Assembly: GCA_031520405.1 (NCBI GenBank)
Contig: GCA_031520405.1_4842.1
DNA: 64,000 nt
Origin: a phage
Reading direction: 5' to 3' (one strand)
A program made the position numbers and the translations under genes. Every line of letters begins with the position of its first letter. Position 1 is the first letter of the stretch. The notes beneath the pieces were generated by a model, which saw only the letters and a program-made list of their open reading frames with translations, was not told the origin of the DNA and did not search any database. Below, in pieces: positions 17,307 through 52,250 of the stretch.

Positions 17307-17317
17307 GTTATTTAAAA

Positions 17318-17382: not shown

Positions 17383-17409
17383 TCCATATTGGTCATCCTT
17401 TATGGAGTA
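17375..17409 (+). promoter_or_regulatory. CTAAATAC box plus 5' hairpin TACTCCATA/TATGGAGTA upstream of tailspike 2
   Basis: 9-bp stem, 12-nt loop; 3' arm contains the GGAG RBS; ATG at 17415. Confidence 0.4.
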
Positions 17410-17414
17410 TTATC

Positions 17415-19328
17415 ATGATTTCTCAATTCAATCAACCACGCGGCTCCACTTCCATAGAAGTTAACAAACAATCTATCGCTCGAAATTTCGGTGTCAAAGA
17501 AGACGAAGTCATTTATTTCACTGTCGGTATTGATCTCAGCGGATTTAAAGTAATTTATGATGAGTCTACCCAACGGGCTTATTCTCTTCCTTCGGGTATT
17601 GTTTCAGGAACGATTGCGATAAGTCTGAACGAACAAGCCATCCTTACTCATTCTTCTGGCTCTGTTGACCTTGGGGAATTAGCAGTAAGCCGCGAAGAAT
17701 ATGTGACTTTACCTGGTTCTTTTAATTTCGGTCATACCATTAATGTGAAAAATGAACTTCTTGTTCACGATGATAAAAAATATCGATGGGATGGTTCTTT
17801 GCCAAAGGTAGTTGCCGCTGGTTCTACACCCGATAACTCAGGCGGTGTTGGTTTAGGTGCATGGTTGAGTGTTGGTGATGTATCATTGAGAGCGGATTTG
17901 GCTAGTGGCACACTTGGTAAAGGTGCGAATCTTTTGACATATAAGTCACAAGTATCAAACTCGGTTGCTATAAGCCAACAAATTAAAAATAGTGAAAGGG
18001 TTTCTGTTTTTGAGTATTTGGCTAAGCCTATTCCTGGTTTTGATAATGCATCAGCATTCGCTGCTATGAAAGCTGATGCTGAAGCAGGTGTTGTAATAAC
18101 AGTACCTTCAGGAGTATATGAAACATCTGAACCACTGAGATTCACAAAACCTGTTCAAATATGGTTTGATGTAGGAGTGCGAATAAAACTTACATCTGGT
18201 GCACATGACCATGTTGTGGAAATAGATTTACGTGGACAAGATGAGGGGTATTGGGGGTATAAACCTTTCTTTGGTGGTGGCAGGGTTATTCTTGATGGTC
18301 TTGGTCATGCTAAGTACGGGCTATCACTTCGTGGCGTAATATCTGGTGGTTTTCCTGGTATTCAAGCAACCAATATAACAACTGCTGGGTTATATCTGGC
18401 TTGGACTCAATGCTGTACATACACTGATTTTATTTGCTCTAATAACGTGGAGGTTTTCACAACAAAACCCCTGCACGGTATTTTAGTAGATAAAGATAAC
18501 AATCCGTCAAATCCACGTGGTACATCATGCGATATCTTTATTAACCCATGTGTAGAGCACACTGCGGGTGATGGGTTTGTAGGACTAAGCCTGATGAACT
18601 CAATGGTTATAAACGGAACAATCGAGGGAAACCTTGGCGCAGGCATTTCATTGGGGCATCCTACAGATAATACTTACACTGCACTGGGTAATACATTTCT
18701 TGGTATTGACCTTGAGGTGAACACGCTAACTGATATTGTGATTAACAAGTTTTCACACATGAACGAGTTCATAGGACTCAAATCAGGTTATTCATCTCCA
18801 TCAGTTCAGGTCAGAGGTTTTCGTAACTATTTCTCTGGAGGTACTGTTAGCGATTTCGACTTCAGGCCAGATAGCCATGACAACCACGTACAGGATGTAA
18901 CACTTTTAGCTGAGTTTCCTGTTGTTAATGATGAAGGGATAAGAAACACTTATGAAAGATTATGGAATCTTAACAATGCTCAAGTTAACGTAAGCACAAA
19001 CCCTGTTAACACAAGAAGCAATCAGCCTATAGCGGGAGGTGAGACAGTAACGTTAGACCCATATAAAGCATCCTATGTTGTATGCACCGCAACAGGAACA
19101 CCTATTAATATAGTTTCTGCCACCAAAAAATTAGATGGAGCAAGAATAGATTTGACAATTCACAATGCATCAGGAACAGATTCATTAGTCATTAACTGGG
19201 CATCAGATATTAGAGTTGGCAATTTTACTCCTCCACCAGCAGGTAAACATAAGGGGTTATCACTAAGATATGATGCTAATTACGGTTATTGGACTGTAGT
19301 TGGTGTTGGACTGGACGCTTTATCGTGA
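17415..19328 (+). CDS. tailspike protein 2 (637 aa)
   Basis: N-terminal anchor block shared with the tailspikes at 14271 and 22293; Gly/Asn-rich beta-helix-like C-terminal region. Confidence 0.75.
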   Translation: MISQFNQPRGSTSIEVNKQSIARNFGVKEDEVIYFTVGIDLSGFKVIYDESTQRAYSLPSGIVSGTIAISLNEQAILTHSSGSVDLGELAVSREEYVTLPGSFNFGHTINVKNELLVHDDKKYRWDGSLPKVVAAGSTPDNSGGVGLGAWLSVGDVSLRADLASGTLGKGANLLTYKSQVSNSVAISQQIKNSERVSVFEYLAKPIPGFDNASAFAAMKADAEAGVVITVPSGVYETSEPLRFTKPVQIWFDVGVRIKLTSGAHDHVVEIDLRGQDEGYWGYKPFFGGGRVILDGLGHAKYGLSLRGVISGGFPGIQATNITTAGLYLAWTQCCTYTDFICSNNVEVFTTKPLHGILVDKDNNPSNPRGTSCDIFINPCVEHTAGDGFVGLSLMNSMVINGTIEGNLGAGISLGHPTDNTYTALGNTFLGIDLEVNTLTDIVINKFSHMNEFIGLKSGYSSPSVQVRGFRNYFSGGTVSDFDFRPDSHDNHVQDVTLLAEFPVVNDEGIRNTYERLWNLNNAQVNVSTNPVNTRSNQPIAGGETVTLDPYKASYVVCTATGTPINIVSATKKLDGARIDLTIHNASGTDSLVINWASDIRVGNFTPPPAGKHKGLSLRYDANYGYWTVVGVGLDALS

Positions 19329-19373
19329 CATCACCAACATTATAAAATGATGTTGTTGCTGTTAAAATTTAAA

Positions 19374-19400
19374 TAACCCCTCTTCGGCGGGGTTCTTATT
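19374..19400 (+). terminator. intrinsic terminator (UUCG tetraloop, one stem mismatch)
   Basis: ACCCCTC-TTCG-GCGGGGT followed by TCTTATT. Confidence 0.55.
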
Positions 19401-19440
19401 ATACCTTTGTTCATAAATTTTATTAGTTCAGACTAAATAC
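19383..19440. repeat. direct repeat copy 2 (identical to 17325-17382)
   Basis: identical string. Confidence 0.9.
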
Positions 19441-19468
19441 CCCATATTGGCAAATCCTTTATGGGGTA
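19433..19468 (+). promoter_or_regulatory. CTAAATAC box plus 5' hairpin TACCCCATA/TATGGGGTA upstream of tailspike 3
   Basis: differs from the 17380 copy by a compensatory T-to-C / A-to-G pair that preserves the stem. Confidence 0.45.
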
Positions 19469-19475
19469 TTTTCAA

Positions 19476-22241
19476 ATGACCAGAAATGTAGAAGAATTAT
19501 TCGGCGGCGTAATCACAGCTCCTCACCAGATTCCTTTCACGTATAAATCAAATGTCGGTGGAGAAACTTTCCTTTCTTTGCCGTTCCATCCCGTCACTGG
19601 TGTTATCACAATCAACGGTGGTATGCAAGTTCCGTTAGACAACTTTGAAATCGAAGGAAATACGTTGAATCTCGGGCGCGCATTGTCCAAAGGCGATGTT
19701 GTGTATTGCTTATTCGATAAAATTCTTTCGCCAGAAGATACAGCCAAAGGTATCCGCATATACAAATTTCAGGCCGTGGGAGGTGAAACCGAGTTCACTC
19801 CTGATTTCACATCCTATGGTGTCCAATCTCTTTATATCGGTGGCGAGTACAAAACACCCGAAATTGAATATTCCTATAACAGCACGACAGGGAAAGTGTC
19901 TTTGCAAACTGCACTGACTGCAGGCGTTTGGGTAGTCGCTGAAATGTCTGTTAAACAACCGAATATCAGTCCGGCGTTTGACCGAAGTATTCAAGAAATC
20001 GCCCGTTCTGCTAATGTAAAAGACTCTGAAGTCATCGTTAGTACGGACACCATATCTTTGTTGGATGGGAAGAAAGTTGTTTATGATATAGCGACGCAAA
20101 CCAGTTATGGTTTACCAACCATTCCTGATGGTTCTGTCATTTCTTCTGTATCTGCTGGGAAATTGAATTACAACCCAGGTGATGTGCAGGTTGATTTGTT
20201 GCCTTTAGAAGATTCATTTATTAATGTGATAAACACTCTGGGGCGCAATGATGGTGCCAAGTATATTGGAGAATGCCATTCTGTTGCTGATCTCAGGAAT
20301 ACTGAACCCACTATGGATGGACAACGCATTATTCTTAAGCAACACACTGCGGGTACTCTTCTTGGTGGAGGGGTATTCCGTGCGTTAATTGATGGTACAG
20401 GAAAGACTGATAATAACGGTACTGTGATCAAAACTGTTGGCGGCGCGGCATGGTTACGTGTTAATGCTGATAGAGTTAACCCATTCATGTTTGGTGCTTT
20501 GGGTGGTTCTAATGATGATACTATTCCAGTACAATCTTGTGTGGATAGTGGTAAGGCCACACAATTAACTGATGCACATTACGTTAGCAATATCCAGTTA
20601 AAATATAATACGTCGTCTATTTATGGGTCTGGATTACATTACTCAAGGTTGCATCAGTTGCCTTCTGCTACTGGGAATTGTATTACCATAAAAGATACAT
20701 GCTCCCTTATTGTATTAGACGCCTTTGGGGTATATGGCACAGGTGCACAACAAGGCATGCCATTTACTGCGGGCACAACAGGTATCTATGTAGAAACTCC
20801 TTCAGGTCTCTCAGCCGATTATCCGTTCCACACTACCGCAGACCCAAGACGCGACTTGTGTATTTCTAAGGTCCATATAGCAGGTTTTGATGAATATGGG
20901 TTAAATATTGATAGTGGTAACTTTAGTGTTACTACAGATTCTCTTTTAGTCAACCACATCAATCAGGTGGGTGTCCGTTGTGCTACTACTGATTGGACTT
21001 GGACAAATATCCAGGTTAATACCTGCGGTAAACAATGTCTGGTTCTTGATGGTTGTGGTAATGGTCGTATTATTGGCGGTAAATTCATTTGGGCTAACTG
21101 GCAACCTTATGGTACAGTAGGACAGTTCCCAGGCATTACTATTAATAACAGCCAGAATATGGTTATTAATGGTATTGAGGTACAAGATTGTGGCGGGAAT
21201 GGCATTGAGATTAGCGATTCATATTCAATTTCCATGAACGGATTGAACACCAATCGTAACGGCATCAATGCTAACAACACTTTCTACAACATCGTATTTA
21301 ACAAAAGCGATGCAGTTATCAACGGATTCGTAGGACTCAATTATGCCGCGAATAGTGGTTCAGGTGCTAACTCTAGTGCAGGCAATTTTCAGTTCCTGTC
21401 TAATGATTGTAGTGTCACCATTAATGGTGTGGTTGAGACTGGTTATATGGGCATTAACTTTATTGGTGATAACAATATTATCAACCCCACCAATTCCGAC
21501 CTGAGCATTAACGGATTGGTTAATTATTCCAAGACTGGTTTGCAAACCATGAACGAGACCCCTACATTTGATGGTGTTAGCACTACACCTGTTTATGTAA
21601 GTGTCCCATCTTCTGTAGGGCAAGTAAATGGTCTGAGACTATCACAAGCCAACAAAGATAAATTACTGTATTCAAGAACAGCAGGTCCAGAAGGTATTAC
21701 CATGGCTGCTGTTGTAGTACCCACCATATCTGGAGCTGAAGTATTTAACTTCATGGCCATTGGTTCAGGGTTTAGTGATACATCCAACAGTCTTCATCTT
21801 CAATTAGTTATAGACGCTTCTGGAAAACAAACAATTGCTTTGCTATTGGGGGGCGATGGTACAACCCAAATTTTATCTGGGGATTTACCTAACGACCTTA
21901 AACTACAAAGTGGTGTACCATATCATATAGCTATTGGTGCTAAACCTGGATATTTCTGGTGGAGTATTCTTAATATTCAGACGGGTAAGAGAATCAGACG
22001 GTCATTCCGAGGCGCTTATTTAGCCGTACCATTTAATTCTATATTCGGATTAACTTCTTCATTAACATTCTTCTCGGATAGCAATGCTGGTGGGGATGCT
22101 TGTTCTGGGGTTGGTGCTAAAGTGTATGTTGGTATGTTCTCTTCTGAGAACGATTATGTAGCTTCACGATACTACAACCTGATTAATCCTGTAGACCCTA
22201 CTAAGTTAATTAGTTACCGTATATTGGATTCTTCTATTTAA
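19476..22241 (+). CDS. tailspike protein 3 (about 921 aa)
   Basis: start placed at ATG 19476, 7 nt after the hairpin as in the paralogs; carries a more divergent anchor block (NVKDSEVIV...KVVYDIATQTSYGLP) and a beta-helix-like region. Confidence 0.7.
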   Translation: MTRNVEELFGGVITAPHQIPFTYKSNVGGETFLSLPFHPVTGVITINGGMQVPLDNFEIEGNTLNLGRALSKGDVVYCLFDKILSPEDTAKGIRIYKFQAVGGETEFTPDFTSYGVQSLYIGGEYKTPEIEYSYNSTTGKVSLQTALTAGVWVVAEMSVKQPNISPAFDRSIQEIARSANVKDSEVIVSTDTISLLDGKKVVYDIATQTSYGLPTIPDGSVISSVSAGKLNYNPGDVQVDLLPLEDSFINVINTLGRNDGAKYIGECHSVADLRNTEPTMDGQRIILKQHTAGTLLGGGVFRALIDGTGKTDNNGTVIKTVGGAAWLRVNADRVNPFMFGALGGSNDDTIPVQSCVDSGKATQLTDAHYVSNIQLKYNTSSIYGSGLHYSRLHQLPSATGNCITIKDTCSLIVLDAFGVYGTGAQQGMPFTAGTTGIYVETPSGLSADYPFHTTADPRRDLCISKVHIAGFDEYGLNIDSGNFSVTTDSLLVNHINQVGVRCATTDWTWTNIQVNTCGKQCLVLDGCGNGRIIGGKFIWANWQPYGTVGQFPGITINNSQNMVINGIEVQDCGGNGIEISDSYSISMNGLNTNRNGINANNTFYNIVFNKSDAVINGFVGLNYAANSGSGANSSAGNFQFLSNDCSVTINGVVETGYMGINFIGDNNIINPTNSDLSINGLVNYSKTGLQTMNETPTFDGVSTTPVYVSVPSSVGQVNGLRLSQANKDKLLYSRTAGPEGITMAAVVVPTISGAEVFNFMAIGSGFSDTSNSLHLQLVIDASGKQTIALLLGGDGTTQILSGDLPNDLKLQSGVPYHIAIGAKPGYFWWSILNIQTGKRIRRSFRGAYLAVPFNSIFGLTSSLTFFSDSNAGGDACSGVGAKVYVGMFSSENDYVASRYYNLINPVDPTKLISYRILDSSI

Positions 22242-22245
22242 AAAT

Positions 22246-22272
22246 ATACCCCTCTTCGGAGGGGTCTTTACT
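22246..22272 (+). terminator. intrinsic terminator (UUCG tetraloop)
   Basis: ACCCCTC-TTCG-GAGGGGT followed by CTTTACT. Confidence 0.6.
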
Positions 22273-22292
22273 AGAAAAACAATGAGGTACTT

Positions 22293-24338
22293 ATGAACGA
22301 AATGTTTAGTCAAGGTGGTAAAGGTTCGACTGGAATCTTAACCAATAAACAAGCAGTAGCCAGACACTTTGGTGTTAAACAATCTGAGGTTGTTTATGCC
22401 AAATCAGGACAGTCCTTGTCTGGTTATAAAGTGATCTACGATAAGGTATCTCAACGTGCCTACGCTCTCCCTTCTAACATTGGTACTGTAACGGTCACTA
22501 GTTTAGTCGACGGCATTCTCACGCACTCTGGAGGCACCGTAGATTTGGGTGCATTGGCTGTGTTAAGGGAAGAGTATGTTACTCTTGTTGAAAATTTTAC
22601 TTCTGGATTTACGATTCGTGTCAAGAACGAAGTCGTGAGCGATGGGGTGAGTCTATATCGTTGGGATGGTGCTTTACCTAAAACCGTTGCACCTGGCTCA
22701 ACACCTGAAACAACTGGTGGCGTTGGTTTAGGTGCATGGTTGAGTGTTGGTGATGCCACATTAAGAAGTGAATTAACATTGAATGTTTCAGATATTAATG
22801 GATTGATTAACGTTAATACAAGAAACAAAAATTTCATGTATGTTACATCATCGTTTCGAGGGGGTGGAGGTGCTGGTGTATATGTATGGAATCCCACAAA
22901 AAATAAATCATTACATAACGGAGCGACTATCATAGACCCATCAAGGACTCTACCGATAAACTGGGATTCTCAGTCGCAAATAGATGATTGGTTTACAATT
23001 TCATCCACAGATGGGGTGGGATGTTTTGAATTAATTGAGGGGGAGAGCTCGGTTAATCCATTGCAGTGGGGCTGCTTGGGCGATTCATCAAAAGACAACC
23101 CACATAGTGGGTATGATAACTCTTTAATATCTGATTATGTTGATGACTACGCTGAATCAGTAAATAAAACAGTATTTTGGCCTCACGGTATATTTAGATT
23201 CACTGGTCCACAGCAAAGAAAGACAAGGCATGATGGACATGAATACATTAGAATGAATAGTGAGTTTTCTACTGTTTTTATTATTGACAATCAGACGCCA
23301 ATAACTTTTCTAAAAGGAAAAGGGATTGGGACCGACCATCAGAAACTGTATGCCCACGGTTCAAGAGGAATAGAATATATTGGCAACCCTAAACGAATCC
23401 ATACTCTTCTTGATGCATACATGTACACGACATCATGGAAGCATTTTGCTGTTCGTGGATTTAAATATGGATTTGATATAAATTTTGTCTCTTTCCATAT
23501 TCAGAATTTCTATTTTACTGATAATGAAATTGGAATTTACCCAAAACCACTAATGCCGCCATTGCAAGCTGCCGCACCAAGTACAATGCTATCATTATCT
23601 TACGGTGCATTTGATTTCAGTAAGAATGGAATAGTATTCACTGAGAGATTTGGGCTTGGCGAGGCAGAAAACGTCATAAACGTAAATCTATCTTCTGTTG
23701 TGTTCGAACAAAATGAATTTGACGGATTCAGTTGTGCTAACTATCCATTACCTGTCGGTGTGAAAAACGCCAACAACAGGGTTATGAACCTTACAGTAAA
23801 TAATTGCTGGGCTGAACTTAACGGTAGAGCTGGTTTCAACTTCGAGAACGCTGACGTAACTGCGAATTCATTGAGAATAAATGAAGCGGATGAATTGATT
23901 TATCCAGCAGGGGCAAGGACATACTCTATTGATGTAAATGGTGTAAGGGAAACAAACGTACTAAAATCGTCACTTTATGGAGCGCATAATATAGAAGCTC
24001 CGGTATCTGGTCAAATGATAATAAAACCAGATGGTAGCATTTATTCTGGTGCGACAATGCCTTTTACTGTTACAAAGACATCGGAAGGTCAATTTAAATT
24101 AACGAATGCATCATCTACTCAGGGGTTTCAATACGTATCAATAGAGGTTATGCCATTCGATAGAGCAAGGATTGATACTGTTGTGACATGTGACCCATCA
24201 GATGTCGCAGCGTTCGTTCAGTTTGGTACAATATCAAGCTATAAGATTGAATTTACATCGAGAGGCACATCTACATTTGTAACTCCAGAGGCTGGTTTCG
24301 CAGTTAAATTCTCATGGGTTCACCCTCTTAATAATTAA
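22293..24338 (+). CDS. tailspike protein 4 (681 aa)
   Basis: N-terminal anchor block nearly identical to tailspike 1 (LYRWDGALPKTVAPGSTPETTGGVGLGAWLSVGD). Confidence 0.75.
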   Translation: MNEMFSQGGKGSTGILTNKQAVARHFGVKQSEVVYAKSGQSLSGYKVIYDKVSQRAYALPSNIGTVTVTSLVDGILTHSGGTVDLGALAVLREEYVTLVENFTSGFTIRVKNEVVSDGVSLYRWDGALPKTVAPGSTPETTGGVGLGAWLSVGDATLRSELTLNVSDINGLINVNTRNKNFMYVTSSFRGGGGAGVYVWNPTKNKSLHNGATIIDPSRTLPINWDSQSQIDDWFTISSTDGVGCFELIEGESSVNPLQWGCLGDSSKDNPHSGYDNSLISDYVDDYAESVNKTVFWPHGIFRFTGPQQRKTRHDGHEYIRMNSEFSTVFIIDNQTPITFLKGKGIGTDHQKLYAHGSRGIEYIGNPKRIHTLLDAYMYTTSWKHFAVRGFKYGFDINFVSFHIQNFYFTDNEIGIYPKPLMPPLQAAAPSTMLSLSYGAFDFSKNGIVFTERFGLGEAENVINVNLSSVVFEQNEFDGFSCANYPLPVGVKNANNRVMNLTVNNCWAELNGRAGFNFENADVTANSLRINEADELIYPAGARTYSIDVNGVRETNVLKSSLYGAHNIEAPVSGQMIIKPDGSIYSGATMPFTVTKTSEGQFKLTNASSTQGFQYVSIEVMPFDRARIDTVVTCDPSDVAAFVQFGTISSYKIEFTSRGTSTFVTPEAGFAVKFSWVHPLNN

Positions 24339-30636: not shown

Positions 30637-30668
30637 GAGAAGGCGGGTTATCCCGCCTTTCTTTTTAT
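30637..30668. terminator. bidirectional intrinsic terminator
   Basis: AAGGCGGG-TTAT-CCCGCCTT followed by TCTTTTTAT; lies between convergent genes. Confidence 0.6.
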
Positions 30669-30877
30669 AACTTGATGTCGCGTCCGGAAGGATCTGAATT
30701 TGCTAGAATATAACCATCAACCACGTTCTTTTCGTCCCACCATTCAATAAAATCATTATCCTTTTCGCCTTTGATAAGACCCACAATGTTATATGAACCA
30801 TCGGCGATTTTAGCATCTACACAGATAATTCTCACACGCCTTCCGTCACGAGTTTCTTTAATATCTTCAACCTTCAT
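30665..30877 (-). CDS. hypothetical small protein encoded antisense within the neck module
   Basis: 70-aa ORF; GAGGA RBS on minus strand. Confidence 0.5.
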   Translation of the reverse strand: MKVEDIKETRDGRRVRIICVDAKIADGSYNIVGLIKGEKDNDFIEWWDEKNVVDGYILANSDPSGRDIKL

Positions 30878-37159: not shown

Positions 37160-37618
37160 ATGATATACGCATACAAAATTGAAACGATAACTAATGGAAA
37201 GGTCTACATCGGTGTGACCAATGACCCACAACGAAGATATGATCAGCATTTTGCGAATGCTTTTCATCATGGAGTCCAAAGTGAATTGTATGATGCCATG
37301 CGTAAGTATGGAACATCTGGATTTACTTTCGTTGTAATTGCTCAGACCGATGAAGTCCATAAATGGGAATTAGAGAAGCAACTCATCTCTCAATATAATT
37401 CTTATGAGATGGGTTACAACATGAATAAAGGCGGTAATGATGGAAGTCATATGCTGGGTAAAACTGCAGCAAAATTGACATCCACAGGTGAACACATTGG
37501 TCTTGTTTCTCTCATAGATCCCCGTTGGGAATTGTGTGAAATCGAACCCGTTTTAAGCAATGTTGACCACGGATTTGATTTTTCTTCCATGAAGATTAAA
37601 AGATTGACGACTAATTAG
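37160..37618 (+). CDS. free-standing GIY-YIG homing endonuclease (Seg-like)
   Basis: N-terminal IYAYKI...KVYIGVT...RRYDQH matches the GIY-YIG signature; inserted between sheath and tube genes. Confidence 0.75.
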   Translation: MIYAYKIETITNGKVYIGVTNDPQRRYDQHFANAFHHGVQSELYDAMRKYGTSGFTFVVIAQTDEVHKWELEKQLISQYNSYEMGYNMNKGGNDGSHMLGKTAAKLTSTGEHIGLVSLIDPRWELCEIEPVLSNVDHGFDFSSMKIKRLTTN

Positions 37619-37648
37619 AATTGTGTACTCTTATTTGGAGATATAAAA

Positions 37649-42123: not shown

Positions 42124-43446
42124 ATGACTAAGAAACTTGTAACCGAAGAAATGCGCAAACAGTGGCTGCCAGTTCTCCAAAAAGAATCTGAAGCTATTCA
42201 ACCTCTGTCTGCCGAAAACGTAACCATCCGTCTGATGCAGAACCAGGCTGAATGGAACGCAAAAAACCTGGGCGAATCTGACGCACCTGGTTCTGTGAAC
42301 AGCACTGTCGGTAAATGGCAGCCAGTTCTGATCGACATGGCAAAACGTCTGGCGCCGATCAACATCGCGATGGACTTCTTCGGTGTTCAGCCGCTGTCTG
42401 GTCCTGACGGTCAGATCTTTGCACTGCGCGCTCGCCAGGGTGTTGGTGACAGTTCCAACACCGCACAGTCTCGTAAAGAACTGTTCATGCAGGAAGCCGA
42501 TTCCGGCTATTCCGGTGATGGTACTGTACAGGCTGGCGACCCGTCAGGCTTTAGTCAGGCTGAGATCGAAGGTTCCGGCTCTGTCGTGACCACTATCGGT
42601 AAAGGTATGCCGTCAACCGACGCGGAACTGCTGGGTACTACCACCAATCCGTGGGCGCGTGTTGGTATCACCGTTCAGAAAGCGACCGTTACTGCCAAGT
42701 CTCGCGGCCTGTACGCTGATTACAGCCATGAACTGCGTCAGGACATGATGGCAATTCACGGCGAAGACGTGGACAATATCCTGTCTGACGTGATGGTAAC
42801 TGAAATTCAGGCGGAAATGAACCGTGAATTCATCCGTACCATGAACTTCAGTGCTGTTCGCTTCAAAAAATTCGGCACCAACGGTGTTGTTGATATCGCG
42901 CAGGACATCTCCGGTCGTTGGGCGCTGGAAAAATGGAAGTTCCTAACTTTCATGCTGGAAGTTGAAGCGAACGGTATCGGTGTTGACACCCGTCGTGGTA
43001 AAGGCAACCGTGTTCTGTGTTCTCCGAACGTGGCATCCGCTCTGGCGATGTCTGGCATGCTGGACTATGCTCCGGTTCTACAGGAAAACACTAAACTGGC
43101 TGTTGACCCGACTGGCCAGACCTTCGCTGGTGTTCTGTCCAACGGTATGCGCGTCTATGTTGACCCGTATGCTGTAGCAGAATATATCACTCTGGCATAC
43201 AAAGGCGCAACTGCGCTGGATGCCGGTATCTTCTTCGCGCCGTATGTGCCGCTGGAAATGTACCGCACCCAGGGTGAAACCACCTTCGCTCCGCGTATGG
43301 CGTTCAAAACCCGTTACGGCATCTGTGCTAACCCGTTCGTACAGATTCCGGCTAACCAAGACCCGCAGGTTTACGTGACTGCTGACGGTATTGCTCAAGA
43401 CAGCAACCCGTATTTCCGCAAAGGTCTGATCAAATCTCTGTTCTAA
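42124..43446 (+). CDS. gp23: major capsid protein, T4 gp23-like
   Basis: 440 aa; blocks FFGVQPLSGPDGQIFALRA and FKTRYGICANPF match remembered gp23 ICGVQPMNSPTGQVFALRA and FKTRYGIGINPF. Confidence 0.85.
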   Translation: MTKKLVTEEMRKQWLPVLQKESEAIQPLSAENVTIRLMQNQAEWNAKNLGESDAPGSVNSTVGKWQPVLIDMAKRLAPINIAMDFFGVQPLSGPDGQIFALRARQGVGDSSNTAQSRKELFMQEADSGYSGDGTVQAGDPSGFSQAEIEGSGSVVTTIGKGMPSTDAELLGTTTNPWARVGITVQKATVTAKSRGLYADYSHELRQDMMAIHGEDVDNILSDVMVTEIQAEMNREFIRTMNFSAVRFKKFGTNGVVDIAQDISGRWALEKWKFLTFMLEVEANGIGVDTRRGKGNRVLCSPNVASALAMSGMLDYAPVLQENTKLAVDPTGQTFAGVLSNGMRVYVDPYAVAEYITLAYKGATALDAGIFFAPYVPLEMYRTQGETTFAPRMAFKTRYGICANPFVQIPANQDPQVYVTADGIAQDSNPYFRKGLIKSLF

Positions 43447-44661: not shown

Positions 44662-45108
44662 ATGTCTAAACAAAATTATATCTTTATTAGTCCAGGACGT
44701 TCCCAGTTTTTTCGTAGCGACATCGATACACCTATCGAAGGTTTTCGCATTTTCAAATGCTATAAATTGGCCAGCGGTGACATTGATTATCAAAGTCACG
44801 ACAATGACCGCCAAGACTTGGTTGATAACGGTTGGGAAGAAATAGATTCTCCTCAATATCTGACCGTCAACCTTTATTATATGAAGGAAAGCGGTAAATA
44901 TTATTCGACTGGGGAGTTGAAAATCCGAGTTTCAGAAGCCCAATCCAATCCAGCAAAAAGTTGGTATGACACGCAAGAGTTAGTGCGTGATCTCCTGAAG
45001 AAAGGCGAACTGCCTGGCTTGGTTAAAGGTTCCCGTTTTGATACCTTCATGTCCTGCGAACAACACCCGTGCTATGTTCCGACTTTATTTAAAATCAGCA
45101 ACATGTGA
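44662..45108 (+). CDS. hypothetical protein
   Basis: 148-aa ORF. Confidence 0.5.
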   Translation: MSKQNYIFISPGRSQFFRSDIDTPIEGFRIFKCYKLASGDIDYQSHDNDRQDLVDNGWEEIDSPQYLTVNLYYMKESGKYYSTGELKIRVSEAQSNPAKSWYDTQELVRDLLKKGELPGLVKGSRFDTFMSCEQHPCYVPTLFKISNM

Positions 45109-45119
45109 GAGATTAATAT

Positions 45120-45494
45120 ATGAGCAATTTACCACTGCTTCAAGTCGGCGATGTGTTCGTTCTCACAGAAGAAATGACCATTGAAACTCAGGTGCCTAAG
45201 CATTTCTTGTATTCTAATTGCAAGGGAGATTGGCAAACGGACTCTGGTTATATCACCCCTGAGGGATTCTTCGGTTACATGCAAGGGCATTATGTCGTTA
45301 CCAAAACAGCTCTACAAGGAGGTAGCGCTGGTCACGACCCATACCCAGACGGTCATCATGTTTGGGCACAGCATACCGAAAATGAACGCATCAGGATCTG
45401 TTTTTATCAGACAGGCAGCTTCAGAAACATGCACCGTAACGTTCCAGTAGTCGGAAAAGCCAAGGCGCAAACATGGACTTGGGAGAAATTATGA
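45120..45494 (+). CDS. hypothetical protein
   Basis: 124-aa ORF. Confidence 0.5.
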   Translation: MSNLPLLQVGDVFVLTEEMTIETQVPKHFLYSNCKGDWQTDSGYITPEGFFGYMQGHYVVTKTALQGGSAGHDPYPDGHHVWAQHTENERIRICFYQTGSFRNMHRNVPVVGKAKAQTWTWEKL

Positions 45495-45727
45495 GAATCA
45501 AAAAGATTGGAGCAAGCCCGTTGACGGGCACTATCTTCCAGGGCACTCTGAATACTAAGACCAGCATGTGGGTCGGTGAGAAGACTGATGTGACTAACGA
45601 CTGTGTAGCGGCTACGGCTGAACACATGCGCCACATCAAGAAAGACTACTGCTTCCCTACTAAAGACGGCAAGTTCCTGGTGCTGAGCGCTGAGGTTCAC
45701 GACACTCTTCCTGATCGCTTCAAATAA
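45491..45727 (+). CDS. hypothetical protein
   Basis: start at ATG 45491 after GGGAGA RBS; ATGA overlap with upstream gene. Confidence 0.45.
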   Translation: MRIKKIGASPLTGTIFQGTLNTKTSMWVGEKTDVTNDCVAATAEHMRHIKKDYCFPTKDGKFLVLSAEVHDTLPDRFK

Positions 45728-45829
45728 ATTTAAAATTTATTCAATAAACGGGGTTTACTTCTTCAATAAACCCCGTATACTTCATTCCATAAGCAGCACA
45801 ACACTGACTCTGAAATGAAGGACTACACC

Positions 45830-46126
45830 ATGAACAACATGCCAACCACCAAAACTGCTCTGGAAATCGATTCTCGCTTTATCGTTGAAGCATGGGCCAA
45901 CAGCCAAAACTCTTATGTGTATTCCCTTTATGTCGGTGACACTTATGTTTCTTGCCTCGGCATCGACGGCTCCAAGAACGAGCACGGCGTGAACGAGCGC
46001 TATACCAAAAAGCAGGCTATCGCTGATGCTACCAAATTCGCGACCGACATTCTGGGTCGCATCAATGCGGGTAAACCGTACAAACGCGGTGAAAAGGGCT
46101 ATGTCACCCAATTGCTTGGTGCTTGA
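45830..46126 (+). CDS. hypothetical protein
   Basis: start at ATG 45830 inside the GAAGGACTACACC-ATG leader motif. Confidence 0.45.
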   Translation: MNNMPTTKTALEIDSRFIVEAWANSQNSYVYSLYVGDTYVSCLGIDGSKNEHGVNERYTKKQAIADATKFATDILGRINAGKPYKRGEKGYVTQLLGA

Positions 46127-46195
46127 TTTGTTCTAAACCTTTGAACGGGGTATGTTAACCGCATACCCTATCCCCTACAAATAGAGGACTTTACC

Positions 46196-46540
46196 ATGAC
46201 AGTCGACACCAAACTGAATAATTCCGTGGAGATCCCCCACATCGTCAAATTCGAAAAGCCGAGCGAGCGTAAGCCACGCAAAACGCGCCGCCTGGTCACC
46301 AAGCTGGATCTTCTGAAACAGAAGTTCGGCGATCACAGTGTGTTCACTCGCATCCGTAACGCATTAAAGGAAGGGCGAACCGAGTTGGAGCTATATCGTC
46401 CAAACGGTTCCACTCGTGCGTATCAGACCACCGACGGCTTGCTGGAACTGATCCGCCTCTCGGGAATGAGCATAGAACCTCGTTCATCAGGGACTCCCTT
46501 GTGCAGCCTGTATGTAATCGGCAATCTTGGGGCGCTGTGA
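46196..46540 (+). CDS. hypothetical protein
   Basis: 114-aa ORF. Confidence 0.5.
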   Translation: MTVDTKLNNSVEIPHIVKFEKPSERKPRKTRRLVTKLDLLKQKFGDHSVFTRIRNALKEGRTELELYRPNGSTRAYQTTDGLLELIRLSGMSIEPRSSGTPLCSLYVIGNLGAL

Positions 46541-46545
46541 GTTCT

Positions 46546-46968
46546 ATGAAGAAGTATATCGTTCTTATAACGGGTTCCCGTTCTATAACTGAGCGGGATA
46601 AAATATTTGCCAAATTAGATGAACTCTTAATCCCTCACGAGATAGAGACGTTTATTGAAGGTGAAGCAGTAGGTGTGGATCTGATATCCCGTGATTGGTG
46701 TGAAATCAATTATGTGCATATTACACCAATGCCGATTCCTCAAAATTACCATACGTTATATGGGAAAGGTGCGGGCAATCAACGTAACAAAGATATGCTG
46801 GACAAGGCTCTAACATTGGCGAAGCAAAAAGATCTTGAGGTCTTTGGAATTGCATTATGGGATGGTTCGTCTACTGGGACGCAAGACATGATCAAGCGCA
46901 TGAAGAAAGCGGGAATAAATGTCAATATCACTCTCATGGGCAAACCCAAAACCAAACGATTGTTATAA
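46546..46968 (+). CDS. hypothetical protein (Rossmann-like; ITGSRS motif)
   Basis: start at ATG 46546; motif resemblance is weak. Confidence 0.4.
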   Translation: MKKYIVLITGSRSITERDKIFAKLDELLIPHEIETFIEGEAVGVDLISRDWCEINYVHITPMPIPQNYHTLYGKGAGNQRNKDMLDKALTLAKQKDLEVFGIALWDGSSTGTQDMIKRMKKAGINVNITLMGKPKTKRLL

Positions 46969-46998
46969 ATAAATTTGCCACCCATGAGGAGTTATACC

Positions 46999-47169
46999 AT
47001 GTTACAAATACTGTTGGTGCTTTGTGTCGCATTTACCATGTACTTCATGGCGCGCATCTGTTTTATTACTTTAGATGACATGAAGGGTATCCCACGTGAC
47101 CACAAATTCATCTTTCTGAAGAAGTTTGCCAAAAAGTTCTCAGAAAACTTTATTTATCATCTACCATGA
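46999..47169 (+). CDS. small membrane protein (single TM helix), 56 aa
   Basis: GAGGAG RBS; hydrophobic MLQILLVLCVAFTMYFMARICFI. Confidence 0.45.
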   Translation: MLQILLVLCVAFTMYFMARICFITLDDMKGIPRDHKFIFLKKFAKKFSENFIYHLP

Positions 47170-47194
47170 TTAAATACCCCCAAAATTGGGGGTA
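47170..47194 (+). promoter_or_regulatory. TTAAATAC box plus 5' hairpin (TACCCCC-AAAATT-GGGGGTA) followed by TTTTT and the ATG
   Basis: read directly; also terminator-like. Confidence 0.35.
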
Positions 47195-47199
47195 TTTTT

Positions 47200-47928
47200 A
47201 TGAACGCACAAATCTACGATGTCCTTTCCTCTGGTAACGCATTTAGCAATCCGCTTCCGTCCCTCTCCGGTCCCTCACAGGATTTAATCACCAGTGGTAG
47301 TACCAATATACCATTGATAACTGCCAACGCGACTCCGGAAATGCAGGTGGCTATGTCAGCAGGTGGATTAACACCAGATAAACTTACAGCAGCCACAAAC
47401 ATGTATAGCTCTGCCAACACGGGGATAACGACACTGAACACATATGGCGACCAGAGCATAAATGAAGCGTATTCAAGAATTGGGACTTCCGTTTCATATA
47501 AATCAGGTTTGAAAAGTATATCACGGGAACCAAACAATTGTGACCTGATCAACAAAGCATTCGGTGTTATTCAGGATCTAGGCCGCCAATGGTTAAACGC
47601 TATGGAAGGCGCTCTCCAGACTGTGACTAACAAGATATCGGAATTGTATGACATGATTATGGAAGGTGCCTCAGAAGGGATGGCAAAACTACAGCAATTG
47701 GCTGCTGAAGTAACAGGACATATCAATGAGGCAATAACCGCCGTCAATGGAGTTATAAATGATATCACCGATGGGATAGCTGCAGAACTTGCTCATATTG
47801 AAAGTATGATCAAAGAATGTCTAAACTTCTCTTTTGCGAATGTTCTTGGAGAATGGGCCAAAGATCTCTGTGCTGGAGGCGTTATTGATAAAATAGGGAC
47901 TCCAGAATTAAAAGAGTCCCTGAAATAA
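47200..47928 (+). CDS. hypothetical protein
   Basis: 242-aa ORF. Confidence 0.55.
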   Translation: MNAQIYDVLSSGNAFSNPLPSLSGPSQDLITSGSTNIPLITANATPEMQVAMSAGGLTPDKLTAATNMYSSANTGITTLNTYGDQSINEAYSRIGTSVSYKSGLKSISREPNNCDLINKAFGVIQDLGRQWLNAMEGALQTVTNKISELYDMIMEGASEGMAKLQQLAAEVTGHINEAITAVNGVINDITDGIAAELAHIESMIKECLNFSFANVLGEWAKDLCAGGVIDKIGTPELKESLK

Positions 47929-48549
47929 TCAATGTCTAGCGGGGAGAACTCCCACTGGTTCGATACCTTCCATCACCAGGGAGTTCACCCCAACATCACT
48001 CATTCGAATCCATACTTTACCGCCTGGTCTTATTTCATAGATGTTCATTTCATTACCCACAGCAGATCCATTAACGAAAACACCCTGAGTGGCAATTCGG
48101 ATCGGAGATTTGGTGTTATTAACTATCTGAAATGATATTGCAACGTCTCTGGTGATTTCTACGTCCCTTGCTTGAGTATTCCTTCTGAGTTTGTCAAAGA
48201 AAGAAGGGTTGAAAGTCGCTATGATGCTATTATTCTGAGAGTAATAAATACTTGCGGATAGATATGGGATCTTTCCTTCGTCACCTTTCCTCAATAGGGG
48301 AATCGTGGTTTTCCAGTATGGTCTCAGTGACTGGTTGTTATCATCAAAACAACCAACAGCTTGAAGAGTCTGGAAGTTCTGAAAATCAGATACTACTTGA
48401 TTCAGAATATTTTTATTGCATTTATCAATGTCGGCTGAGATGTTAACAGGTATGGTTCTGATTTCAGGATCCCAGAGGTCGGTTACAGAAATGACGGACG
48501 TGACAAAGATACGGCAACTTGTGAGTGCAAGCACCATTATCATCGTCAT
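47929..48549 (-). CDS. predicted lipoprotein or secreted protein encoded antisense to the surrounding cluster (start codon uncertain)
   Basis: minus-strand ORF; N-terminal MTMIMVLALTSC resembles a short signal peptide with lipobox LTSC. Confidence 0.45.
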   Translation of the reverse strand: MTMIMVLALTSCRIFVTSVISVTDLWDPEIRTIPVNISADIDKCNKNILNQVVSDFQNFQTLQAVGCFDDNNQSLRPYWKTTIPLLRKGDEGKIPYLSASIYYSQNNSIIATFNPSFFDKLRRNTQARDVEITRDVAISFQIVNNTKSPIRIATQGVFVNGSAVGNEMNIYEIRPGGKVWIRMSDVGVNSLVMEGIEPVGVLPARH

Positions 48550-48612
48550 GATCCATTTTCTGAATCCGCGTGTCAGGAACACTAAAACGTTCTCCACAGC
48601 AAAGGTGCTAAC

Positions 48613-49110
48613 ATGACAGGTGTACAATTCAAAAACGAAAATCCTAATTTCGCGGCTTCCGATAAATGGCGCTTAACTATCGGAGACCTGATATTGCTTA
48701 CTCGTTCAATACATGACTTCAGTATTCCTGGAGTGTATTCTGAAGGTATCGAGGGTCCATCCCCTGGCGATGTGCTCAACTCCATACCTTCAGAACGTCT
48801 CACGTATGACCCCATCGTATTTACGTTCGTTATCGATGAGAGTTGGTACAACTGGGAACAGATTTACAATTGGATTGCGTCTAATGCTGGATCTGATTTA
48901 GCTGTTAGCCGCGACATCACCATCGACCTTCTTGATAACATGAATCGACCTATTGGTCTACAATTGTTGTTGGAAGAAGCCCGTCCCACAGCTTTGGATA
49001 ACGTATTGGTGGATGTGGATGCTGCGGTTCCCCAACTGGTCACGACTGTTACGTTCAAATATTTGAAACTGACTCCGACTCGCGTCACCCGCGAAATTGA
49101 TAAACAATAA
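48613..49110 (+). CDS. hypothetical protein
   Basis: 165-aa ORF. Confidence 0.5.
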   Translation: MTGVQFKNENPNFAASDKWRLTIGDLILLTRSIHDFSIPGVYSEGIEGPSPGDVLNSIPSERLTYDPIVFTFVIDESWYNWEQIYNWIASNAGSDLAVSRDITIDLLDNMNRPIGLQLLLEEARPTALDNVLVDVDAAVPQLVTTVTFKYLKLTPTRVTREIDKQ

Positions 49111-49148
49111 GTTATAATACAGAGAGTTGAAACAGCAGGGAATAAATC

Positions 49149-49604
49149 ATGAGCGAAACAAAACTTGAAACGATGAAAACCGAAGATATAATGGCAGAAT
49201 TGGAACCTCTTATTTCGGTAAATCCTGAAGACATGAACTTGGACCAAATGTCATTGAAAATTGGTCGTTCGTGGATGACTGTGCAACGCCATTATATTCG
49301 TGAAGGAAGATATCTGGAGTATCTAACTGGCAAATTCCGCCAAATAGATCTCTATTTACGCCGATTTTATGCAGGGGAATTGCCGCCCAACGTTTATGTT
49401 GAACGCCCATTAAAAGTTCGACCCCTGAAATCTGATATAGATGTATGGGTAAAAGCAGATGATGATTATATCGAATTGTCTAGCATGCTTCAAGAGCAGA
49501 AAGCCAAAGTCAAGTTCATCGAAAGTTGCTTAGATCGTTTGAACAAACTCGGATATGAAGTGAAGAATGCTATTGATTGGCGAAAATATTTGGATGGGAT
49601 GTAA
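49149..49604 (+). CDS. hypothetical protein
   Basis: 151-aa ORF. Confidence 0.5.
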   Translation: MSETKLETMKTEDIMAELEPLISVNPEDMNLDQMSLKIGRSWMTVQRHYIREGRYLEYLTGKFRQIDLYLRRFYAGELPPNVYVERPLKVRPLKSDIDVWVKADDDYIELSSMLQEQKAKVKFIESCLDRLNKLGYEVKNAIDWRKYLDGM

Positions 49605-50350
49605 TGGTTTCTCTACAGGCTTTGCGCAAACTTAATGACTTTGAAAATCGTCATCATACATTTCAGCAATATTCCTTGCCGTTTAAGGAACTGACTTGCG
49701 TAACTACCGAAAATGGTCGTCACTATGTTTCTCCCACTGGAGTCAAACTGACTTCAGTGACGACCATGTTAGGGCGTACTGGTGACCACACATGGTTAGA
49801 AGCCTGGCGGGACAAGTTGGGGCATGAAGCTGCTGATATAGAAACGCATCGTTGCGCAGACCGTGGGGAAAAACTTCATTTGGCTTGTGAGTTGTATCTC
49901 AAAAACAGACCAATGAAAGAAGTTCTGGAAGCTGCAGGGGAATACGTGTTTATGTTCAAACAGGTTTTCCCCTACCTTAACAAAATGAGCAAGATATATG
50001 CACAAGAGATTCCATTATATAGCGAAGTCCTGGGTCTTGCTGGTCGTGTTGACCTCATCGGGGTTTACGAAGGAATTCCAAGCATAATCGATTTCAAAAC
50101 ATCCAACACCCTAAAAACTCGAAGCATGATAGAAGATTATAGTATTCAATTGTGTCTATACTCAGTCATGTTTCAACAAATGTTTAATGTCAAGATAGAG
50201 CGTTTAATCAATATTATATCCAACGAAAATGCCCTTGTTCCCACCATAATCGAATTCGATCGCAAAGACGTTATTTCTAAAATGTTTGACCGTGTCCGTC
50301 TGTATCACAAAATGGACAAAGAACAGAAAGGAATCTGGGCGGATCGCTAA
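49604..50350 (+). CDS. putative PD-(D/E)xK family nuclease
   Basis: TAATG stop-start overlap; motif GRVDLIGV...IIDFKTS fits the D...(D/E)xK pattern. Confidence 0.45.
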   Translation: MVSLQALRKLNDFENRHHTFQQYSLPFKELTCVTTENGRHYVSPTGVKLTSVTTMLGRTGDHTWLEAWRDKLGHEAADIETHRCADRGEKLHLACELYLKNRPMKEVLEAAGEYVFMFKQVFPYLNKMSKIYAQEIPLYSEVLGLAGRVDLIGVYEGIPSIIDFKTSNTLKTRSMIEDYSIQLCLYSVMFQQMFNVKIERLINIISNENALVPTIIEFDRKDVISKMFDRVRLYHKMDKEQKGIWADR

Positions 50351-50354
50351 ATAC
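50347..50354 (+). promoter_or_regulatory. CTAAATAC late-promoter-like box
   Basis: followed by CTCCATAATATTGG, similar to the tailspike upstream copies. Confidence 0.3.
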
Positions 50355-50376
50355 TCCATAATATTGGGGGAAATTA

Positions 50377-51879
50377 GTGATGTCTGAGATCCAAATAGTC
50401 AAAGTGAACGAAGTTAGAATGCGGATCCTTGCCGAGGATTATATCCGTGAAGAACTCAACGATTACTTCAAATTTGAAGATCCTAATTTCCAACCGAATC
50501 CGTTCAGTAAATGGGACGGCGTAGTGCGGTTGTTCACAAAGAGTTCTGGGCTTATCGACATCGGCCTGTTATTTGAGGTGTTCAAATTCTGTAAGATGAA
50601 CGGTTACACCATCAAATTAGATCCGGCCTTAAAATATATTCAAGATATTCCGGATGAAGAAATTCATGCGTTCATCGATACATTGAATGCGGTGTACCGA
50701 GACGAAAACAAACAATATCAAAAAGCGATTGTCCGCGATTATCAATTTGATTCTGTTGCCACAGCAATACGCCAAAGCAGATGTGTCCTCGAAGCTGCCA
50801 CGAGTGCTGGCAAATCCTTTATTTTGTACATCATGGCGCGTTACTACAGGCAACGCAGAGATGCCCTCGAAAGTAATCTGAGGACGTTAATCGTTGTACC
50901 ATCCATTCATTTGGTGACTCAGTTGTATGACAACTTCGAAGAATATAGCCACGGGACAGAATGGAAACCATTGATGAATGTCCAGACAATATACGAAGGG
51001 GCAACGAAAGAGATTTTCAAACCCATAGTTATTTCAACTTGGCAAGGTATCCAGAACCAACCCAAAGAGTGGTTCCATCAATTTGGAGATATCGTCGTCG
51101 ACGAAGTACATACATCAAAATCAGATAAATTGTCTTACATCTTGAATAACTGTATTAACGCTGATCAACGTTTGGGAGTAACCGGAACCCTGGCGAATAC
51201 AAAGGTCGCAGGGTTACAAGTCGTTGCTCACTTTGGCGCATATCATAAAATTATTACAGCGCGCGATTTAATCGATCTAGGATATGCGGCAGACATCAAT
51301 GTTAATATGATTGAAGTCATACATCCTATGGCAGACTGTATTGAAATGCACGGTGCTGAGTATCAAAAGGAAATAGAATTCCTCATTGCTAACGAACGCC
51401 GCAATGAATTGATAGCTCGAATGGCTCTATCTTTGAAAGGGAACGTCGCAGTAATGTTCGAACGTATCGATGCACACATGATGTTGGTTTATGAAATGCT
51501 ATCGACAGTCAAGAAAAACGTATTCGTCATCAACGGGGAAGTCAAGACAGAAGTTCGTAAACAGATTCAGGCTGCTATGGAAGAAGGTGAAGATATAACA
51601 CTGTTGGCTTCATACGGTACTATGCAACAGGGCGTATCTATCAAAAAACTCCATCATCTGATATTGGCCCATCCCAGCAAATCTTATATCCGTGTTATAC
51701 AGACATTGGGGCGTTTGATGCGTCAGCATTCCTCTAAGGATGTTGCGCGAATCTGGGACCTGGTAGACAACCTGCGTTACAACGGTTCCTACAACCATGC
51801 TCTCAGGCATTCTCATGAGAGATATAAATTTTATCTTATGGAGCGCCACCCTGTTAAAATGAAAAAAGTGGCGCTCTAA
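50377..51879 (+). CDS. uvsW: SF2 helicase, T4 UvsW-like
   Basis: 500 aa; Walker A EAATSAGKS, DExH box VVDEVH, motif III VTGT, motif VI QTLGRLMR. Confidence 0.7.
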   Translation: MMSEIQIVKVNEVRMRILAEDYIREELNDYFKFEDPNFQPNPFSKWDGVVRLFTKSSGLIDIGLLFEVFKFCKMNGYTIKLDPALKYIQDIPDEEIHAFIDTLNAVYRDENKQYQKAIVRDYQFDSVATAIRQSRCVLEAATSAGKSFILYIMARYYRQRRDALESNLRTLIVVPSIHLVTQLYDNFEEYSHGTEWKPLMNVQTIYEGATKEIFKPIVISTWQGIQNQPKEWFHQFGDIVVDEVHTSKSDKLSYILNNCINADQRLGVTGTLANTKVAGLQVVAHFGAYHKIITARDLIDLGYAADINVNMIEVIHPMADCIEMHGAEYQKEIEFLIANERRNELIARMALSLKGNVAVMFERIDAHMMLVYEMLSTVKKNVFVINGEVKTEVRKQIQAAMEEGEDITLLASYGTMQQGVSIKKLHHLILAHPSKSYIRVIQTLGRLMRQHSSKDVARIWDLVDNLRYNGSYNHALRHSHERYKFYLMERHPVKMKKVAL

Positions 51880-51884
51880 CTATT

Positions 51885-52250
51885 TCAAAGATCTTGGTTC
51901 ACATAGGCGGGGGTTGCCTCGCCTTCTTTGTTGGAACCAAATAAACAGTCGATCGTGCCAATACATTGTTGTAGCACTTTCGGCTCAAGAATCTGAGAAA
52001 ACAATTCTTCATTAGATGCCAGCAATGGAACAACTTTCACTTCCCGCGCCTGGCCTTGTTGAATAATGCCAACATACAGACCTTTGTTATTTGGGAGTAA
52101 TGGTATCACCATCATCGGTGTCACAACAAACCCCGATGTACAGAAAAGGCTTTGTAAATAAACGCCTTTTAATGACGAACGTTGTTCTGATATGGAAAGA
52201 ATTGCTTCTTGGTCTTCCCCTACTGCGTATAAACCAACAAATTGCTTCAT
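51885..52250 (-). CDS. hypothetical protein
   Basis: 121-aa minus-strand ORF between uvsW and the clamp gene. Confidence 0.4.
   Translation of the reverse strand: MKQFVGLYAVGEDQEAILSISEQRSSLKGVYLQSLFCTSGFVVTPMMVIPLLPNNKGLYVGIIQQGQAREVKVVPLLASNEELFSQILEPKVLQQCIGTIDCLFGSNKEGEATPAYVNQDL

Follow-up and report, generated by a model that had tools for sequence, protein, structure and literature searches.

Periplasm-facing lipoproteins that exclude further phages are exemplified by Llp of phage T5, which acts on FhuA, and by Rtp45 of phage Rtp, which acts on LptDE. Here we analyse a minus-strand gene in a 64,000-nucleotide stretch of phage DNA (contig GCA_031520405.1_4842.1 of GenBank assembly GCA_031520405.1; hereafter the window), which belongs to a Kuttervirus (CBA120-like) of the Ackermannviridae. 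The gene encodes a predicted exported lipoprotein of the Pfam family DUF7424, and superinfection exclusion by this protein is plausible, if unproven. An earlier sequence-only reading had singled it out as the only sizeable minus-strand gene between 43541 and 51879, and it is indeed the sole minus-strand gene annotated there in JN03, CBA120 and rabagast; the remaining minus-strand open reading frames (ORFs) in this interval overlap plus-strand genes and are unannotated. The elements of the gene are as follows.

47929..48582, minus strand: prolipoprotein coding sequence, 217 residues plus stop; homologue of CBA120 orf170, Sajous1 gp167 and LIMEstone1 ORF128; Pfam DUF7424
48591..48595, minus strand: Shine-Dalgarno sequence GGAGA, 8 nucleotides (nt) upstream of the GTG start
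48517..48582, minus strand: predicted signal peptide, residues 1-22; n-region with R5, R8 and K9, then a hydrophobic h-region
48514..48525, minus strand: lipobox L20-T21-S22-C23, with Arg at +2; lipid attachment and cleavage are predicted at Cys23
47932..48516, minus strand: predicted mature protein, residues 23-217, 195 residues, 21.9 kDa, isoelectric point 7.9; alpha/beta N-terminal half and beta-rich C-terminal half
48418-48420, minus strand: Cys55, nearly invariant
48349-48351, minus strand: Cys78, nearly invariant

Start codon and lipoprotein signal

The ORF extends from 48627 to the stop codon at 47929-47931, and its start has been placed differently: the sequence-only reading used ATG 48549, yielding the N-terminus MTMIMVLALTSC, and the annotated start is GTG 48582 (217 residues) in CBA120 (orf170) and rabagast and ATG 48537 in JN03. 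Judged from the sequence and its conservation, translation most likely begins at GTG 48582 and not at ATG 48549. Neither ATG is preceded by a ribosome-binding site comparable to the GGAGA upstream of the GTG, and the GTG together with GGAG at equal spacing is kept in 11 of 11 relatives inspected, including the L007 contig, where the protein is ~38% identical. The 11 extra residues gained from the GTG start (FLTRGFRKWI) supply the positively charged n-region and are conserved as protein, with the consensus xLMRGIxRxx. The correction is useful regardless of function, as JN03 and similar records cut short the signal peptide.

Read from GTG 48582, the N-terminus is MFLTRGFRKWIMTMIMVLALTSC, with an uncharged h-region (WIMTMIMVLAL); n-region, h-region and lipobox are all conserved in an alignment of 24 relatives. 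Cys23 is invariant in three alignments (A1, A2 and A4), and in a 33-member alignment with a mean identity of 18% the only invariant columns are this lipobox cysteine and Asn155 of an N-D/N-T motif, with Cys55 and Cys78 at least 90% conserved. A strict lipobox heuristic (a hydrophobic stretch followed by [GAS]-Cys) is passed by at least 118 of 130 full-length members, the other 12 being mostly truncated gene calls or carrying a lipobox below the threshold of the heuristic, and of the 118 members that pass, 114 have a net n-region charge of +1 or more. The classic lipobox [LVI][ASTVI][GAS]C, with the cysteine 15-35 residues from the start (a PROSITE PS51257-type rule), occurs in 87 of the 130. 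Among 1651 start-defined candidates of at least 50 residues in all six frames of the window, a lipoprotein-type N-terminus is confined to this ORF. Annotation by others agrees: the LIMEstone1 authors noted "putative signal peptide present" for the homologue ORF128 (SignalP positive), the GenBank records of rabagast, pertopsoe, moki, dinky, barely and kage (citing Marshall) label the homologue "putative lipoprotein", and a Vibrio-phage paralogue is annotated "membrane lipoprotein".

The lipobox could nevertheless mislead, the product being signal-anchored or merely secreted, or a cytoplasmic protein initiated at ATG 48537 or 48549. The JN03 annotation of ATG 48537 and unusual residues at -2 in some members (e.g. 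LNSC) would be compatible with this, but it is very improbable, as the cysteine is invariant family-wide while the surrounding residues drift, protein-level conservation extends upstream of the ATGs and comes with a conserved ribosome-binding site and GTG, and the ATG-initiated forms have neither n-region nor ribosome-binding site.

At position +2, Arg is found in 59 members, Lys in 40 and Asp in 14, and all members from enterobacterial phages carry Arg. In Enterobacterales, lipoproteins without Asp at +2 are transferred to the outer membrane (the Lol-avoidance rule), so that Arg at this position predicts outer-membrane placement.

Virion proteomics bears on the lipoprotein character as well. 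The CsCl-purified virion proteome of Sajous1 gives 8 spectra for gp166 and 8 for gp168 and does not list the homologue gp167, and the LIMEstone1 virion proteome (Table 2) lists ORF127 (gp3) and ORF129, not the homologue ORF128. With both neighbours detected in two published proteomes, the lipoprotein is a non-virion protein. A role as virion or tail-assembly component might be read from the place of the gene, which has a structural-protein gene on one side and the tail terminator gene on the other, and from homologues inside prophage tail operons. However, this is the least probable of the alternatives: tail assembly in the cytoplasm cannot be squared with a conserved signal for secretion and lipidation, the protein is missing where both neighbours are seen, and the gene lies on the opposite strand without the late motif that precedes structural genes. 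The Sajous1 "gp214-217 tail-completion / molybdate / ferritin operon" was also considered as this locus and rejected, as it lies elsewhere in the GenBank genome record; the gp3-like tail completion protein of Sajous1 is gp168, not gp214. In that record the gp214 "operon" (L004, 151641-155300) consists of a 795-residue hypothetical protein and three small genes near the primase gene.

Taken together, the lipoprotein-like N-terminus noticed in the sequence-only reading, which had proposed a check with alternative starts, is strongly supported when the GTG is used, by the invariant lipobox cysteine, the LIMEstone1 signal peptide and the absence from two virion proteomes; GTG 48582 gives the full lipoprotein-type N-terminus, and the version from ATG 48549 comes without the n-region. 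That the protein is an exported lipoprotein is accordingly a prediction, yet a strongly supported one. Conservation of the ORF in relatives, the lack of which would by the same reading have refuted it, is equally clear from a DUF7424 match (E = 1.4e-60, with a score of 204.9 bits where the gathering threshold is 27 bits, spanning profile positions 2-195 of 196) and from retention of the gene across the Ackermannviridae.

The protein also matches PHROG 3832 (phrog_3832, function unassigned; E = 4.9e-113), and nothing else in Pfam, PHROG, NCBIfam or PADLOC matches it. A word-indexed homologue search returned 53 clusters, where long enough mostly on phage-sized contigs of ~137-161 kb, and an exhaustive hidden Markov model (HMM) search of 1.84 billion cluster representatives returned 81, nearly all of 185-260 residues and aligned end to end. 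Ten of ten tested clusters from the HMM search match DUF7424, and a repeat homologue search with a divergent profile gave 7 proteins. The ratio of non-synonymous to synonymous divergence (dN/dS) is ~0.04 against Kuttervirus alleles of 88-89% identity; the gene is real and under strong purifying selection.

With 24 close sequences, AlphaFold reached a predicted local distance difference test score (pLDDT) of 67.5, and with 45 sequences including distant members (model me75d4bbed5ee) a pLDDT of 83.7 and a predicted template modelling score of 0.80. In this model, residues 1-21 are of low confidence, as expected for a cleaved signal peptide, and the remainder is mostly >90; a compact domain begins two residues after Cys23. 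The confident model indicates a fold of the mature protein unlike any solved structure: a sequence-profile search of the PDB found nothing and a PDB fold search nothing specific. The near-invariant cysteine pair suggests a Cys55-Cys78 disulfide, fitting a periplasmic location. DUF7424 is unmentioned in any paper found by our literature search.

A core gene in antisense beside the tail terminator

The gene is flanked on both sides by plus-strand genes whose products are present in virions.

47200..47928, plus strand: DUF7217 virion protein (CBA120 orf171), convergent neighbour, found in virions; late-type motif ATTAAATAC upstream
48613..49110, plus strand: gp3-like tail terminator (tail completion protein), divergent neighbour, found in virions
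42124-43446: major capsid gene

The stop codons of the DUF7217 and lipoprotein genes touch with zero spacer, and the start codons of the lipoprotein and gp3 genes lie 30 nt apart; UvsY, exonuclease and UvsW genes come after gp3. Sequence identity of the window over 47000-49300 is 100% with Escherichia phage vB_EcoM_JN03, and 97-99.7% with CBA120, Det7-like and numerous further Kuttervirus genomes.

By tblastn, the lipoprotein is present in 349-351 phage records, compared with 368 for gp3. Counts for the two are equal among phages of Salmonella (164), Klebsiella (44), Escherichia (29), Dickeya (19), Serratia (10), Shigella (6), Erwinia (4), Enterobacter (3) and Aeromonas (3), and among Vibrio phage records they are 64-66 for the lipoprotein versus 73 for gp3. 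As the antisense orientation and the divergent pairing with the tail terminator gene are kept in Miltonvirus, an uncultured relative and Vibrio phages (22-25% identity), the lipoprotein gene is a core gene of the Ackermannviridae, fixed in antisense beside the tail terminator. Its divergence outpaces that of gp3, with identities of 70% versus 87% to Klebsiella phages and 22-25% versus 39% to Vibrio phages.

Synonymous divergence in comparisons with two relatives (L014 and L015) is ~1.3 in the lipoprotein gene versus 0.05-0.23 in gp3. The gene as a special exchange hot spot was considered on these grounds and rejected by sliding identity, because the entire region is a patchwork of ~83% and ~99% blocks. 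This Kuttervirus patchwork is seen over 44929-51582 against L010, L013-L015 and L026, and one of its edges falls at ~48529, the 5' end of the lipoprotein gene.

Homologues beyond the core copy occur in other settings. Some Vibrio Ackermannviridae carry a second DUF7424 paralogue, closer to the version in Pasteurellaceae prophages than to the core copy.

L037 5001-5630 and L038 2486-3055: DUF7424 copies of Vibrio phage 207E48.1, the extra copy in a run of small genes
L029 4001-4630: extra paralogue of Vibrio phage 1.244.A, directly upstream of a pectin-lyase-fold tailspike gene

In Pasteurella multocida and Haemophilus haemolyticus, the homologue lies inside E217/Pam3-like myovirus prophages, at insertion points in the tail operon that differ (after the tape-measure gene in one, after a gp41-like gene in the other). 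The short upstream spacers of these copies hold sigma-70-like promoters (TTGAAA-17-TATACT and CAGACA-17-TAGAAT), and just 3' of the stop codon both have an intrinsic terminator, formed by a strong GC hairpin and a T-run. The prophage homologues thus have the classic moron layout of self-contained promoter-gene-terminator cassettes. In gut Alphaproteobacteria genome bins (L033 and L034), homologues sit amid genes for small serine recombinases/invertases, an integrase, SHOCT-domain and ankyrin-repeat proteins, which suggests that they mark an invertible or mobile surface-protein island.

The transcription of the Kuttervirus copy is harder to trace. Many plus-strand genes, mostly structural and also uvsW, carry the motif aCTAAATAc ~30-45 nt upstream.

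Starts near 17415, 19461, 24433, 30939, 35208, 39976, 41195, 47200 and 50377 (uvsW), plus strand: genes with aCTAAATAc upstream

This motif is probably the late promoter of the phage; the T4 late consensus (TATAAATA) is not used in the window, where its single occurrence in 64 kb is fewer than by chance. As regards a moron layout, the lipoprotein gene of the window is autonomous by its orientation, but with no recognisable promoter; the best local sigma-70-like match (TTGAAG-17-TATAAT, 49493-49465) lies ~900 nt upstream and is shared by close relatives only. No terminator was found between the abutting convergent stops, and the terminator-like site found for the lipoprotein gene in the window is weak. 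The gp3 gene is preceded only by a two-mismatch version of aCTAAATAc, lost in Klebsiella-phage relatives. Given this poor motif and the missing terminator between the stops, late gp3 transcripts may possibly read antisense through the lipoprotein gene. A literature search found no Ackermannviridae transcriptome.

The position among late and structural genes, the outer-membrane-type lipoprotein signal and the fact that lysis genes are core genes of lytic phages would together be compatible with a lysis protein, i.e. an outer-membrane spanin subunit of unusual size or a different lipoprotein helping to breach the outer membrane at the end of infection. Outer-membrane spanins (o-spanins) are typically short, proline-rich and unstructured. 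The mature protein, in contrast, has 195 residues, is globular and contains 5.1% proline, its neighbours encode the DUF7217 virion protein and the tail terminator with no inner-membrane spanin partner adjacent or embedded, and other authors have annotated separate Rz-like and inner-membrane spanin genes in Kuttervirus. Moreover, the prophage copies lie in a tail operon and not in a lysis cassette, and a late-type promoter is missing on the lipoprotein strand. We therefore regard a lysis role as unlikely.

Several other features of the window were observed alongside. Two further lone minus-strand genes stand in the plus-strand cluster, at 30665-30877 (70 residues, between neck genes) and 51885-52250 (121 residues), neither with a signal peptide; the LIMEstone1 paper describes an insertion with its own promoter and terminator between neck genes, too. 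A GIY-YIG-type homing endonuclease gene (~37160-37620), labelled group I intron endonuclease in JN03, separates the tail sheath and tail tube genes. Near-identical ~100-nt intergenic cassettes (~17310-17414 and ~19370-19460) precede two tailspike genes, each with a GC hairpin CCCCGCTTCGGCGGGG followed by TTCTTATTATACCTTTGTTCATAAATTTTATTAGTTCAGACTAAATAC, and the hairpin is found again before other genes; the cassettes may be module boundaries for tailspike exchange. Collinearity of the JN03 record OR885871.1 with the window is imperfect, with an offset of 4 nt before ~31 kb and of ~372 nt somewhere in 50-61 kb. The records OR844942.1 ("Enterococcus phage Efm 3-10") and MN871475.1 ("Pseudomonas phage Pa-sanjiao") include sequence nearly identical to this Kuttervirus and are probably mislabelled or contaminated.

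Proposed exclusion and competing envelope roles

Based on these observations and on analogy with described systems, we propose that the lipoprotein excludes further infection or protects progeny from debris. This is the single most likely role, with a probability of roughly 0.4. In this mechanism, the precursor would be exported by Sec, acylated by Lgt, cleaved before Cys23 by signal peptidase II and N-acylated by Lnt, so placing the 21.9-kDa domain flat on the periplasmic face of the membrane, stabilised by the Cys55-Cys78 disulfide. The lipoprotein would then bind a conserved envelope component at the outer membrane, whereupon later phage particles would fail in adsorption or penetration, and the outcome would be superinfection exclusion and/or progeny spared loss on cell debris. 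The export and lipidation steps are taken from established lipoprotein biology, and function is the weakest step of the scheme. Arguing for exclusion are the prophage copies, present as stand-alone cassettes inside tail operons, the Vibrio-phage paralogue that adjoins a tailspike gene, the uptake of the homologue by recombinase-flanked islands, and the character of the product as a non-virion, predicted envelope protein from a gene autonomous by its orientation.

A number of points weigh against exclusion. Lipidation, localisation and function of the DUF7424 protein are all inferred. By Pfam and fold searches, the protein is related to Llp, Cor or Rtp45 neither in sequence nor in fold, and its mature form is ~3x the size of known exclusion lipoproteins, which are small (~6-8 kDa). 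Exclusion genes are usually accessory, unlike this strongly constrained core gene, which moreover lies 24 kb from the tailspike genes. Among 11 relatives, none has aCTAAATAc on the lipoprotein strand within 1.5 kb upstream, and no sigma-70-like site upstream of the gene is positionally conserved. Furthermore, genome-wide screens with CBA120 give only O-antigen and LPS (lipopolysaccharide)-core genes as host determinants, and published screening gives the O-antigen as sole receptor for GSP004. Since such screens point to O-antigen and LPS core alone, there is no known protein receptor for the lipoprotein to jam, unless the target is an essential machine invisible to such screens. The window contains four tailspike-sized genes (14271-24338), three with a Tail_spike_N domain; the sequence-only reading had taken the four tailspikes to fit a block of the phage's own receptor, for which they are irrelevant either way, and that block itself is something we infer.

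Nearly as likely as exclusion, and a possibility we take seriously, is that the exported envelope lipoprotein performs another core periplasmic task in host takeover. Candidate tasks are modulation of LPS or capsule export, envelope-stress signalling, outer-membrane integrity or inhibition of a periplasmic enzyme of host or phage, comparable to T4 Spackle and the tail lysozyme. Core status in a whole lytic family together with strong purifying selection is easier to reconcile with an important role in infection than with an accessory role, no functional hint comes from the novel fold, and Kuttervirus depends on surface polysaccharide. In addition, the folded domain begins right after the lipid anchor and so would have to act at the membrane surface. 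However, Pfam, NCBIfam, PADLOC and PDB searches detect no homology to known inhibitors or regulators, and the stand-alone cassettes in prophages and islands suggest an advantage for the cell that carries them more than a lytic step.

A more specific form of exclusion, which we consider doubtful, would make DUF7424 a new structural class of exclusion lipoprotein that clamps an essential, conserved outer-membrane machine (such as LptDE or BAM); this machine would be the terminal penetration site of the Ackermannviridae and would escape transposon screens. If true, this would explain the core status of the gene in phages of Salmonella, E. coli, Klebsiella, Dickeya, Serratia, Aeromonas and Vibrio, and also its borrowing by other mobile elements as a stand-alone cassette.

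Significance and comparison with known systems

Members of the Ackermannviridae, e.g. CBA120, ViI and Det7, rank with the phages most used in biocontrol of Salmonella and E. coli O157. Their passage through the outer membrane once the O-antigen is cut is a mechanistic question on which this lipoprotein gives a handle, and identifying what it binds could uncover either the terminal receptor or a process of the envelope over which these phages need control. If the lipoprotein excludes other phages, the design of cocktails would be affected, as co-applied phages might block each other, and a third, structurally distinct example would join the very small set of mechanistically understood exclusion lipoproteins. 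Without an exclusion role, the result still gives a functional hint for an uncharacterised Pfam family. We see the lipoprotein as a modest experimental lead, and neither as a surprise nor as a discovery. A 2024 review of the Ackermannviridae makes no mention of a lipoprotein, superinfection or spanin.

Among described systems, T5 Llp resembles the DUF7424 protein in its conserved cysteine pair (Cys11-Cys58 in Llp), and a probable transcription unit of its own among tail genes is a trait in common with both Llp and Cor. However, neither Llp nor the T1/phi80-type Cor proteins show sequence or fold similarity to the DUF7424 protein, and Llp has 61 mature residues as compared to 195 here. Llp also blocks a protein receptor, FhuA, whereas Kuttervirus is without a known one, and the Kuttervirus gene lies away from receptor-binding genes, adjacency being seen only for the paralogue of Vibrio phage 1.244.A. 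Rtp45 is likewise a periplasmic outer-membrane lipoprotein, and its target LptDE is essential, conserved and hidden from transposon screens; such a target would suit a lipoprotein that is conserved in phages infecting many host genera. Rtp45 differs in its size of ~6 kDa and has no detected homology, and nothing ties DUF7424 to LptDE.

T4 Spackle (Sp) and Imm offer a likeness of another kind, as exclusion factors located in the envelope; T4 is a related large lytic myovirus, and Sp acts in the periplasm. In contrast to the protein described here, neither is a lipoprotein, no similarity to them was found, and Sp inhibits the tail lysozyme. Rz1-type o-spanins have in common with it a phage outer-membrane lipoprotein signal with a residue other than Asp at +2, and are set apart by the large, globular and not proline-rich DUF7424 protein, the missing partner gene and the separate spanins annotated in the genus. 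Plasmid TraT is similar in size to the DUF7424 lipoprotein. Lambda Bor, TraT and other lipoprotein morons differ in that Pfam places no match to their families in this protein, and in that the Kuttervirus copy resides in a strictly lytic phage.

With respect to Pfam DUF7424 and PHROG 3832, the window protein is a full-length member without any difference, and the gene, the lipoprotein label and the Pfam family are already in databases. New here are the corrected start, the family-wide invariant lipid-attachment cysteine, the core status with fixed antisense placement and the absence from virions, as well as the confident model with an unmatched fold and the moron and mobile-island contexts of distant homologues.

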